A DNA stretch of 6,904 nt from a virus (lineage: Duplodnaviria; Heunggongvirae; Uroviricota; Caudoviricetes). The translations under genes were made by a program, and so were the position numbers. Shown in pieces: positions 1,214 through 6,096 of the stretch (position 1 is the first letter of the stretch; each line of letters opens with the position of its first letter). The notes under the pieces are model-generated. The model was not told the origin of the DNA and made no database searches. It was given only the letters and a program-made list of their open reading frames with translations. The stretch is from IMG/VR virus record IMGVR_UViG_2648501165_000007, positions 1-6,904 of that record. One strand, written 5' to 3'.

Positions 1214-1954
1214 TCACATACCCTGACGTCCAACGTTTGACCGCCAGCTCTCCCAGTTAAAATTCACCCAACGACCACCATTCATGGTCATACGGTCCAT
1301 CACCCGATCTCCGAGGAGTGTGCTCATCGCTGCGTGATTCAGGTTCGTCAGCATTCCGACACTACGCATCGAAGCCGTTCTGCGGTCGACTATCTGGTTC
1401 AGCGTGACCTGCTCGTTGCGCGTATCCCGCTGCATGCCAATTTCATCAAGGACCAGAAGGTCAACTCCACAAAGCTCCTGTAAAAATTTTTCCCCGGACT
1501 GGCCGTTGTCGTAGCCGTCATGCAACACGCTCATGACATCGGACACGGTGACGATAATCACGCTTCTCCCCTTCGCCATCAGCCGATTGCCAATCGCTGC
1601 TGCCAGGTGATTTTTACCGGTACCAGGTTTACCGCTGAACACGAAGTTTGTACATCCGGTCATCAATTCATCGGCAATGGATTTCGCCTGGCTCAGAGCA
1701 TGGCGCTGACCGTCGTTCTGCACCTGGTAATTCGCAAACGAGCATTTACGGTGCAACGGCTGGATGCCTGAACGATTCAGAATTTTTTCCACCCGCAACT
1801 GGCGATTCAGGCGGTTGATCTCCTCGCTACGTTTCTGGCCTTCAGCAAGTTGCCACTCGCGCCACTCCGCTACCGTTCTGAATGGGGCGGTTACATGTGG
1901 CGGGGTCAGTCGGCGGATGCGTTCCAGAACGCCGCCTGTCGCAATATTTTTCNN
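1214..1954 (-). CDS. ydaV: DnaC-like replicative helicase loader (AAA+), YdaV-like
   Basis: Walker A FSGKPGTGKNHLAAAIG and Walker B LLVLDEIG in the track ORF 1214..1798. Manual upstream translation in the same frame gives KNIATGGVLERIRRLTPPHVTAPFRTVAEWREWQLAEGQKRSEEINRLNRQL, which aligns with the remembered YdaV N-terminus. The inferred ATG (plus 1952-1954, c+NN) lies inside the N run, so the start is inferred rather than seen. Confidence 0.8.
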   Translation of the reverse strand, partial: XKNIATGGVLERIRRLTPPHVTAPFRTVAEWREWQLAEGQKRSEEINRLNRQLRVEKILNRSGIQPLHRKCSFANYQVQNDGQRHALSQAKSIADELMTGCTNFVFSGKPGTGKNHLAAAIGNRLMAKGRSVIIVTVSDVMSVLHDGYDNGQSGEKFLQELCGVDLLVLDEIGMQRDTRNEQVTLNQIVDRRTASMRSVGMLTNLNHAAMSTLLGDRVMDRMTMNGGRWVNFNWESWRSNVGRQGM

Positions 1955-2721
1955 NNNNNNNNGTCCGGCAACGAGACAGTGTTAACCTGTCGGAGCAACG
2001 TCTCAGGCCGAACACCTTTCGGCGCGAACAGGCCCTGGTATTCATTGGCGATGCTGTGTCGAATCACCTGCTCAGGTGAAAAACCCTGCTGGCGGAATTT
2101 TTCCAGCTCCCGTATCGCCCCGTTAGCGCCCTGCTCCGTTCGAATCGGTTTACGCAATGCCTGCCTGAACTTAACCCACTCATGCCAGAGTGTTTCCGGC
2201 AACCAGTCAGGCAGCTCGATAGCCTCCGGCTCGAATTTTTTAGACGCTCGTTTTTGGCGAGGGGGATTTAGGGGGAGATCAGTATTTATATCTTCCTCTT
2301 CCTCTTCCTCTGGTAACGCTTTTTGATCCGTTTGTGTAACGCTGCCAGCGTTACCTTTTCGTTTCAGTTCGCGTATTTTTGTAACTCGCTCGTTTGTAAC
2401 CGCCCGTTTTTTAGAGCTTTTTCCGTTATGACGTTCAAAGTTAGGTAGAGAAAGCCCACCGTCATTTTCGACCAGCCATCCAACCTGAATTAACGCATCA
2501 GCAAAACCAGCCATAAAAGTGATGCGGTCTATTGCACTTTTTGTAACGCCGCGAGCGTTACAATCTGCATTACCGTCTATCATTTGTTGATCCGCCCATG
2601 CCCAGAAGCGAATAACCTTCCCTAATGCGGCATCTGGATCAATATTCAGAATCTCAGCAAGCCTGAATATTTCCGGCTTATCCGGCGTAATAACCTCGAG
2701 CTTTATCCAGTTTGAAGCCAT
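1951..2721 (-). CDS. ydaU: replication initiation / replisome organiser protein, YdaU-like (functional analogue of lambda O)
   Basis: ATG at 2719-2721 with AAGGTG RBS. N-terminal region MASNWIKLEVITPDKPEIFRLAEI...GVTKSAIDRITFMAGFADALIQVGWL is typical of phage replisome-organiser N domains. Poly-Glu linker (EEEEEE, 2293-2310) separates N- and C-terminal parts. The 3' end is masked by the N run 1953-1962; the stop was placed at 1951-1953 (Nga on minus), assuming an ATGA overlap with the ydaV-like start. The track ORF reads through to 1906 in an unreliable frame. Confidence 0.65.
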
Positions 2722-3556: not shown

Positions 3557-3976
3557 ATGGAAAAAGAAAACGAAAAAATTGCCGCTAGTAGGCTCAATGA
3601 CAAAATTGCAATGCGTCTTAAAGAGCGCAGGCAGAAGCTTGGTTTATCTCAAGGAAAACTTGCTGAAATCTGCGGATGGACGCAATCGCGTATAGGTAAC
3701 TATGAGGCGGGCAGCAGAAATGTTGGAGTGCATGACGCTGTCGTATTGGGAAAGGCACTTGGCATATCTCCTCCTGAGCTCCTCTTTGGAGAACAGGAAT
3801 CTTCTGAATTGTGGTTAAATGAATCCCAACGAAAACTTCTTGAGTTGTTTAACCAGCTACCGGGCTCAGAACAACAACGAATGATTGAGTTATTTGAAGT
3901 CCGGCTAAAAGAAATCGATGAGTATGTAGAAAAATATTTGAGAGGCAGGCTTAAAGATAATCCCCCACCGGAGTAA
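3557..3976 (+). CDS. DicA-like HTH repressor (CI-type immunity repressor lacking a peptidase domain), 139 aa
   Basis: HTH LSQGKLAEICGWTQSRIGNYEAG near the N-terminus, followed by LLFGEQ and KLLELFNQLPGSEQQ, matching the remembered DicA architecture (ELLELFNALPESEQ). AAGGA RBS 4 nt before the ATG. Divergent from the Cro-like gene. Confidence 0.75.
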   Translation: MEKENEKIAASRLNDKIAMRLKERRQKLGLSQGKLAEICGWTQSRIGNYEAGSRNVGVHDAVVLGKALGISPPELLFGEQESSELWLNESQRKLLELFNQLPGSEQQRMIELFEVRLKEIDEYVEKYLRGRLKDNPPPE

Positions 3977-4005
3977 TGATCTTGCTATCACAGTAATATG
4001 CCAAT

Positions 4006-4031
4006 CAGCCCGCTATCAGCGGGCTTTTTTG
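4006..4031 (+). terminator. intrinsic terminator after the repressor gene
   Basis: Stem AGCCCGCT (4007-4014) / AGCGGGCT (4018-4025) with short loop ATC, followed by a T tract to 4030; lies 30 nt after the repressor stop. Confidence 0.7.
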
Positions 4032-4072
4032 TACCATCATCATATGACACCCACCACAAAACACATTTCGTG

Positions 4073-4101
4073 TTGACACAAGAAAACGCATTGTGTTTAA
4101 T
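4073..4101 (+). promoter_or_regulatory. sigma70-type promoter TTGACA-17-TTTAAT with an inverted repeat in the spacer (operator-controlled promoter of the leftward operon)
   Basis: TTGACA at 4073-4078, 17-bp spacer, TTTAAT at 4096-4101. Inverted repeat ACACAA (4076-4081) / TTGTGT (4091-4096) sits in the spacer. A further AACAC attt c GTGTT repeat lies at about 4059-4073. Half-sites resemble the ACACA/TGTGT repeat in the 3461-3556 region. Confidence 0.6.
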
Positions 4102-4281
4102 AAGCATATCCAAACAACGCCCCACCAGAGAACGGCAGGACAATACCTCGAGTTATCCAGCCACTGAACAGGGCTAAGTAGCCAGCCTGAGGCATACGAA
4201 CATGACGGCAGTTGTTGATTGATACAAAGCGCAGTAGATAAAACGTTCCGCCACCCGGCGTTAAGGGGAAATGAGGTCAAC

Positions 4282-4434
4282 ATGGATACTATCGATCTTG
4301 GCAACAACGAATCTCTGGTATGTGGCGTGTTTCCCAATCAGGACGGCACATTCACCGCCATGACGTATACCAAAAGCAAAACGTTTAAAACCGAAGCTGG
4401 CGCACGTCGCTGGCTTGCCAGAAATACTTGCTAA
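4282..4434 (+). CDS. ydaF: small protein, YdaF/YdfA-like, 50 aa
   Basis: ATG at 4282 with GAGG 5 nt upstream. Translation MDTIDLGNNESLVCGVFPNQDGTFTAMTYTKSKTFKTEAGARRWLARNTC matches the remembered Rac YdaF / Qin YdfA small proteins in length and sequence. The track ORF 4219..4434 starts further upstream without an RBS. Confidence 0.55.
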   Translation: MDTIDLGNNESLVCGVFPNQDGTFTAMTYTKSKTFKTEAGARRWLARNTC

Positions 4435-4656
4435 TCCATTATTTGGATTAATTCAATATTCTCGCTGTAGGGGTATAGCAGAAACCACCAAAGCCCGGAG
4501 GTGGTGAAATAAAANNNNNNNNNNATTTAAAACTGAAACAGGCGCACGTCGCTGGCTTGCCAAAAATACCAGCTAATCCATTTATTGGATTAATTCAATA
4601 TTCTCGCTGTAGAGGTATAGCCGAGGCCACCAAAGCCCGGAGGTGGTGAAATAAAA
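4384..4656 (+). repeat. tandem direct duplication, two units offset by 142 bp and roughly 90 percent identical
   Basis: 4384-4514 aligns with 4526-4656 at a constant offset of 142, with scattered substitutions. Unit 1 covers the last 17 codons of the ydaF-like gene plus about 80 bp downstream. Each unit carries a hairpin TAATCCA (5 nt) TGGATTA directly after the stop codon. The junction is masked by N 4515-4524. Confidence 0.8.
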
Positions 4657-4759
4657 CCGGGCATAACACGAAGGCGCATTTCCGGTATCCATAAAGAGTC
4701 GGTCTTGTCTGTCAAATTTAAATGGTGGGAGTGCGCCTCCGGTTGTGAATAACAACACT

Positions 4760-4821
4760 GCTGTGTGTAGTCTTGGCGGCATCAGTTTTTTCTTGAAGTT
4801 CGACTGATGTCCGCCCTTTTT
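4760..4821 (+). ncRNA. dicF: DicF-like small RNA (cell-division-inhibiting sRNA family of Qin-type prophages)
   Basis: TTGGCGGCATCAGTTTT and GACTGATGTCCGCCCTTTTT resemble the remembered DicF core (UUUGGCGGUAUCAGUUUU ... GACUGCUCUGCCGCCC). Hairpin GGCGGCATCAG (4775-4785) / CTGATGTCCGCC (4804-4815) followed by TTTTT (4817-4821) forms the terminator. The 5' boundary is approximate. Confidence 0.5.
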
Positions 4822-5129
4822 AAAGTGAATTTTGTGATGCNNNNNNNNNNAAGCTATTGTCCTTCGTAGCAGAGTTATGGGTGAAATATCCGGCGTTAAT
4901 TGTTAACTGGTTAACGTCACCTGGAGGCACCAGGCACCGCATCAACAAAGTTCACTTCAGTGATGAAAGGTGAGAGAAAATGTTGAATGTAGCTATTGAA
5001 AACCAGAACGGGTGGAATTATAGTGCACCTGCACCTCATAAAACGGGTGCCGGGATTTGCACCCCGATGATCACTAGAGCGCATAACCGCGCCAAAGCGG
5101 TTTTTTTATGCGTAAAGCGCAGCCACATT

Positions 5130-5215
5130 CAGATTATGGTGGGGCGTATGGGGCCGTTTTCGGGCGGGCCGGATTCTCTAGTGACCGGTAGTGCAAACCC
5201 TGTACGTCTCACCAC
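5130..5215 (+). ncRNA. candidate c4-like antisense regulatory RNA embedded in the leader of the Rha gene
   Basis: Element a' CTCTAGTGA (5176-5184) and b' GTGCAAA (5191-5197) are complementary to two upstream/downstream pairs: b1 TTTGCAC 5056-5062 and a1 TCACTAGAG 5071-5079; b2 TTTGCAC 5224-5230 and a2 TCACTAGAG 5256-5264. a' is flanked by CCGG/CCGG, which could close a loop. Boundaries are guessed. Confidence 0.4.
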
Positions 5216-5273
5216 CCATGAGATTTGCACCTCCGGTGGTGAGTTTACCAACTTATCACTAGAGGCTGCCATC

Positions 5274-5828
5274 ATGGCTACTATCCCTACCCTTTCTCAC
5301 CCTGACGTAACCATCGAAAATGGTCGTGCTGTCACTACGTCTGTTGCAGTTGCAGAGTTTTTCCGCAAGCTGCATAAAAACGTCATTCAAAAAATTGAAG
5401 CTCTGGAATGTTCCTCAGAATTCACTGAGCTTAATTTTAAGCCAAGTGAATACACCGACTCAACCGGGCGCAAACTCCCTATGTACCAAATCACCAAAAA
5501 CGGCTTCGTTTTCCTGGTGATGGGCTTCACTGGCAAAAAAGCCGCTGCATTCAAAGAGGCCTACATTGCTGAGTTCGACCGCATGGAAGCAGAACTACGC
5601 CAGAATAATACCACTCCCACAAACAAAATCATTCCGGGCGATGGGCGCACTCTGGTTGTTCGCTTCGACAAATTCGGCAACGTCGAATTCACTGAAACCG
5701 TTCCTGATGACGCTCTCGTCTGTACCCTAGACACTTTCCGCCTTTATCTGGAGAAACAGGGCTGGACTCTTGTAAACCGAAGCGCAATTAAAAACATGAC
5801 CGTCGAGCAGTTGCTGAGTATTAAATAG
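5274..5828 (+). CDS. Rha-family phage regulatory protein (antirepressor-like), 184 aa
   Basis: ATG at 5274 with GAGG 9 nt upstream. Motif RAVTTSVAVAEFFRKLHKNVIQKIEAL ... YQITKNGFVFLVMGFTGKKAAAFKEAYIAEFDRME is the Rha-domain signature. The track ORF 4980..5828 carries a 98-codon N-terminal extension over a structured repeat-rich leader, judged non-coding. Confidence 0.7.
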   Translation: MATIPTLSHPDVTIENGRAVTTSVAVAEFFRKLHKNVIQKIEALECSSEFTELNFKPSEYTDSTGRKLPMYQITKNGFVFLVMGFTGKKAAAFKEAYIAEFDRMEAELRQNNTTPTNKIIPGDGRTLVVRFDKFGNVEFTETVPDDALVCTLDTFRLYLEKQGWTLVNRSAIKNMTVEQLLSIK

Positions 5829-5874: not shown

Positions 5875-6096
5875 ATGATTGCTCATCACTTCGGAACCGA
5901 TGAAATACCACGCCAGTGCGTGACTCCTGGCGATTATGTTCTTCATGAAGGCCGGACATATATTGCCTCGGCAAACAATATTAAAAAGCGAAAACTTTAT
6001 ATTCGTAGCCTAACTACAAAAACATGCATTACTGACTGCATGATTAAAGTCTTCCTCGGTCGTGATGGTTTACCTGTAAAGGCGGAGTCATGGTGA
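5875..6096 (+). CDS. kilR: KilR-like small protein, 73 aa (Rac prophage cell-division inhibitor family)
   Basis: Strong RBS AAGGAG 6 nt before the ATG at 5875. Length 73 aa and position immediately upstream of the ydaE/racC/recE-like genes match the Rac order kilR-ydaE-racC-recE. Sequence identity is from memory only. Confidence 0.6.

Follow-up and report, generated by a model that had tools for sequence, protein, structure and literature searches.

The window analysed here, a stretch of DNA of 6,904 nucleotides, belongs to a Rac-like prophage of Shiga-toxigenic E. coli, and its positions 4400-5300 are 99% identical to E. coli 2014C-3061, among others. In a 99%-identical locus annotated by PGAP (L001), the + strand carries in succession an HTH regulator, a small hypothetical gene, ydaF (DUF1391), an unannotated gap of 429 nt, a Rha-family regulator, kilR, ydaE, recE, recT, ralR, xis and int. 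In the window, ydaF, the sRNA with its putative promoter element and its leader, isrK, C4, the Rha-family ORF and kilR lie on the + strand as well. The operon's upstream gene is ydaF (4282-4434, assigned through the PGAP annotation of L001), the positional homologue of ydfA in the Qin prophage, and an ORF at 5875-6096 encodes the FtsZ-directed division inhibitor KilR (73 aa; 'killing protein KilR' of PGAP in L001) as a downstream gene of the operon. The first-pass annotation had placed a DicF-like sRNA in a Rac-type leftward operon also carrying a kilR-like gene, and this placement holds, the operon being of the early-left type. Operator-like palindromes (AACACATTTCGTGTT; ACACAAGAAAACGCATTGTGT) surround a TTGACA hexamer at 4040-4110, directly after a terminator-like hairpin (4007-4025) following the repressor gene; the ydaG-ydaF-kilS-kilR operon probably has its PL-type promoter and operator in this region. 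A weak Trp_leader match (3946-4032; 27.5 bits, cut-off 41) overlaps the same hairpin, and an RT-3 match of 18 bits lies far under its cut-off of 40.5.

Three runs of N in the window (1953-1962, 4515-4524 and 4841-4850) are fixed placeholders of ten letters, the last one standing for 35 nt in the near-identical loci L001, L057 and L123. The run at 4515-4524 separates two direct copies of about 90% identity (4381-4514 and 4525-4658) comprising the ydaF 3' end and downstream sequence, and this repeat reflects either a genuine duplication or the joining of sequence from two paralogous prophage copies.

Upstream of kilR the window harbours an antirepressor module resembling both the P1 immI region (c4-icd-ant) and isrK-anrP of Gifsy-1. 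It consists of the RNA gene isrK (5031-5107; Rfam 68.6 bits, cut-off 50), preceded immediately 5' by a promoter-like site (TTGAAA-17-TATAGT, 4996-5024) and closed by a terminator at its 3' end (5085-5107), of the C4 antisense RNA (5132-5219; 78.1 bits, cut-off 45) and of an ORF for an antirepressor-like, Rha-family regulator (5274-5828). RefSeq relatives annotate the latter from 4980 (282 aa). Since isrK and C4 both lie within the 5' part of this longer frame (4980-5828), the in-frame ATG at 5274 would more plausibly be the start of the Rha-family protein. The junction of the module with the leader downstream of the sRNA is found in 54 of 5426 complete E. coli genomes, showing it to be a minority insertion between the sRNA and its leader on one side and kilR on the other.

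The sRNA itself falls into the 429-nt gap left unannotated by PGAP between ydaF and the Rha-family gene. By alignment, the flagged element is an allele of the already known sRNA KilS and not a new RNA. KilS is annotated in the K-12 RefSeq genome as b4833 ('small RNA KilS') at 1418405-1418502 within Rac, between sieB and kilR. The 98 nt of K-12 KilS align to 97 nt of the window (4725-4821, the full-length form) with five substitutions and one indel, corresponding to about 94% identity; the indel is one U fewer in the loop of the window allele, and the K-12 RNA ends, at 1418405, with the final T of the corresponding U tract. Reading the window sequence, we find CTGCTGTGTGTAGTC at 4758-4772, the single-stranded G/U-rich seed CUGCUGUGUGUAGUC of the RNA, which is joined to many hairpin types in related loci. 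It is followed by the terminator hairpin GGCGGCATCAGT...ACTGATGTCCGCC (4775-4815) and by TTTTT (4817-4821), the sRNA 3' end and likely Hfq-binding tail. Folding results in a hairpin with a GGCGG/CCGCC base, one bulged U, an upper stem of 7-8 bp and a U-rich loop of 14 nt. The full-length RNA reaches -35.4 kcal/mol (z = -3.5) and a 76-nt stretch -23.9 kcal/mol (z = -3.5 versus dinucleotide shuffles). The window shares with K-12 the seed core, the hairpin, the U tract, the 3' flank and leader and the operon from ydaF to kilR. It differs in the absence of sieB upstream, in the presence of the isrK-C4-Rha module between sRNA and kilR, and in a T-to-C exchange converting a CAUUGC stretch, predicted to pair with yncL, into CACUGC. 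Taken as a whole, 4725-4821 is in all likelihood the KilS orthologue of a Rac-like prophage of Shiga-toxigenic E. coli, acting in the general mode of an Hfq-dependent base-pairing sRNA.

In K-12, RIL-seq data led to the prediction of KilS, and a Northern blot with a band at the expected size confirmed the RNA (Bar et al. 2021, PMC8175672). It is missing from an hfq mutant, builds up in stationary phase and sits in the kilR 5' UTR; its own transcription start site was mapped at 1418502 and an internal RNase E site at 1418471, i.e. nt 32 (PMC8175672 and its supplement). With only three RIL-seq interactions, a low sRNA score and yncL as the sole partner named in the main text (PMC8175672), its trans-acting role is weakly documented. 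We infer for the window allele a behaviour like that of the K-12 copy, as well as its promoter and its targets. The K-12 start site maps to window position 4725, about 50 nt 5' of the hairpin, and implies a putative extended -10 element (TGtCAAATT, 4710-4718) for the primary transcript. The K-12 counterpart is TGtTAAATT at -15 to -7, the window having C for T at -12, and a consensus promoter scan of the window reported no promoter at 4710-4718. The RNase E site maps to 4756, two to three nt upstream of the position aligned to the DicF 5' end, predicting a processed form of about 66 nt (4756-4821) as the unit homologous to the 53-nt DicF. The start of 4759 proposed in the first-pass annotation thus comes close to the 5' end probably generated by RNase E at 4756-4759, while the primary transcript probably begins at 4725. 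When the full-length form is folded, part of the seed pairs with the 5' end of the RNA, suggesting that KilS activity may depend on processing.

The hairpin and terminator likeness to DicF noticed in the first-pass annotation is real, the sequence being as described there. The Rfam DicF model (RF00039) matches 4762-4816 on the + strand over its full length with 42.8 bits and an E-value of 5.9e-7 for the window, which is significant and far above chance, yet below the gathering score of 48 bits; K-12 KilS scores 39.1 bits and true DicF 76.7 bits. A global alignment of the window element with K-12 DicF has 47 identical positions in 65 columns. The similarity continues beyond the RNA, as K-12 Rac, K-12 Qin and the window have one and the same 18-nt 3' flank, AAAGTGAATTTTGTGATG, and the downstream leader of about 60 nt (CCGGCGTTAATTGTTAACTGGTTAACGTCACCTGGAGGCACCAGGCAC...) as well as upstream stretches also align with the Qin dicF locus. 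By these alignments, KilS and DicF are homologues, the homology extending into both flanks.

The gene order agrees with this homology. Qin has the order dicA, ydfA (DUF1391), ydfB, ydfC, dicF, leader, dicB, and Rac has racR, ydaG, ydaF (DUF1391), (sieB), kilS, the same leader and kilR. The kilS position is, as read from both gene orders, syntenic with that of dicF in Qin: a DUF1391 gene, the sRNA, a common leader and a division inhibitor. The first-pass view of a setting unlike that of Qin is refuted by the DUF1391 gene upstream and the common leader downstream. The conserved 3' flank and structured leader common to the dicF-dicB and kilS-kilR spacers spans 4822-4979 in the window (alignment A1); the leader is followed in Qin by dicB and in K-12 Rac by kilR. 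It gives sub-threshold Rfam matches to STnc100 (window 4851-4979, 22.5 bits; L001 6304-6450, 40.6 bits; L002 2933-3142, 34.4 bits; cut-off 47), a family described as related to the PasD sRNAs of pathogenic E. coli (2026 preprint), and may be an sRNA in its own right or serve as an element for processing.

KilS and DicF share the GGCGG.AUCAG...CCGCCC-UUUUU terminator scaffold, and the window hairpin shows the features of a DicF-type RNA: the GGCGG/CCGCC base, a CAGU/ACUG upper stem and a subsequent U tract. The architecture in between differs, DicF having a 7-bp lower stem, a 1x3 internal loop and the CAGU/ACUG upper stem where KilS has a 5-bp base, one bulged U and a near-perfect stem of 7-8 bp. 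The 5' seed is UUUCUGGUGACGUU in DicF and CUGCUGUGUGUAGUC in the window, and the loop is UUUUACUCCGUGA in DicF, i.e. its anti-ftsZ sequence, versus UUUUUUCUUGAAGUUCGA in the window. The divergence of the 5' region stated in the first-pass annotation is therefore correct, but it is not confined to this region, as the hairpin loop has changed too. Both RNAs build up in stationary phase, and DicF has an RNase E-made 5' end at nearly the same aligned position as the RNase E site of K-12 KilS; DicF is made only by processing, whereas KilS has a reported transcription start site of its own. A link between KilS and DicF is mentioned neither in the paper naming KilS (PMC8175672) nor elsewhere in the open-access literature searched. 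Within the literature checked, the homology of both RNAs and the modular superfamily discussed below are apparently undescribed. Faubladier and Bouché are said to have reported dicF-hybridising prophage sequences in 1994, which may have covered Rac.

KilS-type sequences, counted as matches covering at least 80% of the query, occur in 1840 of 5426 complete E. coli genomes. A copy at least 99% identical to the window allele is carried by 190 genomes, 100% identical copies existing also in other E. coli, and KilS-type sequences are found in inducible phages such as Rac-SA53 and in the phage record vB_EcoS-683R6. Among the E. coli and phage matches listed, none has an RNA feature annotated underneath, and in two phage records a 'hypothetical protein' is annotated there. 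The lack of an Rfam family of its own together with a score under the DicF cut-off may explain the missing annotation.

A survey by pattern scans of species-representative genomes and IMG/VR contigs, complemented by BLAST, revealed 39 distinct sequences downstream of the seed UUGCUGUGUGUAGUC, with more than 30 different hairpin interiors among them. The seed precedes the KilS loop, the DicF loop, short loops in the Escherichia phages GER2 and PhiR5_2, in Citrobacter phage phiNP a stem of 11 bp (GGCGGUACCAG) and, elsewhere, long hairpins of 60 nt. Conversely, the DicF loop is found behind three different 5' regions, namely those of DicF, of the KilS type and of a Salmonella type (L021). In E. 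coli Z1323CEC0010 (L004 1547-1603) a KilS-type 5' part with its seed is fused to the DicF-type loop UUCUACUCCGUGG directly upstream of kil, reaching 61.6 bits with the Rfam DicF model; judged from its sequence, this chimera would combine both recognition modules. The 15-nt seed followed by unrelated hairpins is present in phiNP (L007 1526-1570) and in about 60 IMG/VR loci (L159-L222), some of the hairpins having about 60 nt (GGCGGUACCAGGGUCUUCAACC...); none of these loci is annotated, and Rfam finds in them nothing or only a 25-bit DicF match. These mosaic lambdoid relatives (phiNP, PhiR5_2, GER2 and the IMG/VR contigs) have the same or a near-identical seed directly before a GGCGG-based terminator hairpin in an early operon, whereas their hairpin interiors are unrelated and their flanks and downstream genes differ.

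Because this survey required the seed, a second sample was anchored on the phiNP-type stem alone, yielding 88 distinct loci. In this sample the 20 nt before the hairpin have 0.94 bits per position versus 0.24-0.31 further upstream, and the seeds vary, AAGCUGUGUGGAGUCUU and GCAGUUGUGUAGUUGUUU being examples. The stem is supported by compensatory pair changes among 80 distinct family hairpins at position 6 (U-A 57, C-G 11, U-G 9, A-U 2), position 8 (C-G 56, U-A 8) and position 10 (A-U 70, C-G 6, G-C 2), the pairs being counted from per-sequence folds, as KilS-type and DicF-type rows are out of step by one column over the 3' stem in the MAFFT alignment A2. The conserved unit, as far as sequence comparison tells, is a G/U-rich single strand of about 15-20 nt plus a terminator hairpin, an arrangement typical of Hfq-dependent sRNAs acting in trans. 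A hairpin of 34 nt, TGGCGG[T/A]ATCAGGAATGATGATNCCGCCCTTTTT, was also observed repeatedly in distant phyla (L009-L036; Verrucomicrobiota, Chthoniobacterales and other MAGs); it has the stem base of DicF, yet is probably unrelated.

These observations are compatible with a model according to which KilS and DicF are two named representatives of a single large superfamily of sRNAs from lambdoid phages, unrecognised so far, in which seed and loop recombine on a GGCGG...CCGCC-U5 scaffold and window-type alleles have shifted target sets. We put this forward tentatively, as a reading nearly as probable as its converse. The occurrence of the unchanged seed UUGCUGUGUGUAGUC on more than 30 interiors, including that of a Citrobacter phage, would suggest a conserved enterobacterial target other than ftsZ. 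Mechanistically, KilS would be transcribed from its weak extended -10 promoter within the operon or be cut from the long operon transcript, and would end at its own intrinsic terminator (4821). Cleavage by RNase E near 4756 would leave the seed CUGCUGUGUGUAGUC exposed as the 5' end of the RNA; aided by Hfq, the seed would then pair with C/A-rich sites in host mRNAs, yncL being the reported K-12 partner. The hairpin would at the same time serve as a cis terminator or attenuator limiting read-through towards rha and kilR.

This last activity could also be the main one. The element would then be mainly an intrinsic terminator or attenuator gating early-left transcription into rha, kilR and recET, the short RNA being a by-product with little activity in trans. 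The location of KilS in the kilR 5' UTR of K-12, the strong hairpin with its U tract, the formation of the DicF 3' end at the corresponding terminator, the few RIL-seq partners of KilS and the position of the PhiR5_2 relative downstream of an N antiterminator gene are all in line with such a role. However, a terminator needs no conserved single strand upstream, and, apart from the stem base, the approximately 20 nt before the hairpin are the best conserved part of the family, in contrast to the freely varying loops and upper stems. Moreover, accumulation of the K-12 RNA depends on Hfq, and chimeras with yncL were recovered (PMC8175672). A predominantly cis-acting element is on balance unlikely, though well worth considering, and the roles as cis terminator and as trans-acting sRNA are compatible and can coexist.

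Assuming the trans-acting sRNA, its possible targets were assessed by segment-wise duplexes with 47 translation-initiation regions using hybrid-only energies, the ranks being weak evidence as even DicF-ftsZ, a validated pair, comes only 14th of 47. For nt 31-52 of K-12 KilS and the yncL 5' UTR, a duplex of CAUUGC/GCAAUG plus CUGUGUGUAG/CUAUACACAUAG is predicted at -20.8 kcal/mol (rank 2 of 47), consistent with yncL as RIL-seq partner in K-12. With the window allele the predicted yncL duplex is weakened to -15.2 kcal/mol (rank 14 of 47) because of the T-to-C exchange in the CAUUGC stretch. In K-12, a site within narW that precedes the narV start by 49 nt (L157, about 41570) is predicted to pair with K-12 KilS nt 30-52 at -29.4 kcal/mol and much more weakly with the window allele (-18.6 kcal/mol); this pairing may be due to chance in a sample of 47 regions. 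Full-length RNAduplex calculations of the sRNAs against ftsZ and yncL were dropped, as they returned unrealistically long duplexes no better than those of shuffles. Within the window, sites complementary to the seed are limited to the opposite strand of the gene itself and one site with three mismatches, within chance expectation.

The homology to DicF raises the question of whether KilS acts on ftsZ. Mutational and compensatory work established that the 3'/loop region of DicF pairs with the ftsZ ribosome binding site and with pykA, and its 5' end with xylR (PMC5069750), which reverses the assignment in the first-pass annotation, where the 5' region was the part pairing with ftsZ. The DicF 5' end UUUCUGGUGAC responsible for xylR pairing is absent from the window, the aligned region being CUGCUGUGUGUAGUC. 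The related suggestion that a changed 5' region could retarget the sRNA remains sound, since the single-stranded 5' region differs and different targets are plausible from the sequence. Were KilS a functional DicF equivalent, its loop would pair with the ftsZ ribosome binding site, and the operon would encode, in the sRNA and KilR, two inhibitors directed at FtsZ. The loop AGUUUUUU(U)CU is indeed complementary, via A-U and G-U pairs, to GGAGAGAAACU of ftsZ, the K-12 KilS loop ranks first of the 47 regions for ftsZ, and kilS occupies the operon position of dicF. The hybrid energy with ftsZ -25 to +7 is -16.0 kcal/mol for K-12 KilS, close to the -16.9 kcal/mol of DicF, but only -11.6 kcal/mol for the window allele, as the missing U breaks the register; the window loop accordingly drops to rank 28 of 47 for ftsZ. 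The anti-Shine-Dalgarno core ACUCC of DicF is gone from the window loop UUUUUUCUUGAAGUUCGA, which is U-rich instead and lacks the complementarity to the ftsZ ribosome binding site characteristic of DicF-type loops, leaving a U-rich and wobble-rich pairing. The KilS hairpin is more stable than that of DicF (-18.7 versus -15.1 kcal/mol), so that its loop-proximal stem is harder to open. Together with an Rfam score below the cut-off and with yncL, not ftsZ, as the only partner named in the main text for the three RIL-seq interactions (PMC8175672), this makes ftsZ targeting by the window allele doubtful and a functional equivalence with DicF improbable.

Finally, that the likeness to DicF arose by chance from a generic G+C-rich terminator, as the sub-threshold Rfam score and the presence of TGGCGGNATCAG...CCGCCCTTTTT hairpins in unrelated MAGs could suggest, is extremely improbable and was rejected, because the identical 3' flank, the leader and the upstream stretches align with the syntenic dicF locus, besides the E-value for the DicF model and the existence of intermediates such as the L004 chimera.

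As a summary, the result for the window is mainly corrective, as the RNA had already been named, detected by Northern blot and annotated in K-12. If the superfamily reading is true, the window allele, with one U fewer in its loop and a C in CACUGC, would have a shifted target set. The modular family represents a natural experiment on the exchange of seeds among phage sRNAs. Should a conserved host target exist for the conserved G/U-rich seed, this target would provide a second route, beside KilR and DicB, by which prophages of the Rac/Qin type act on host physiology.
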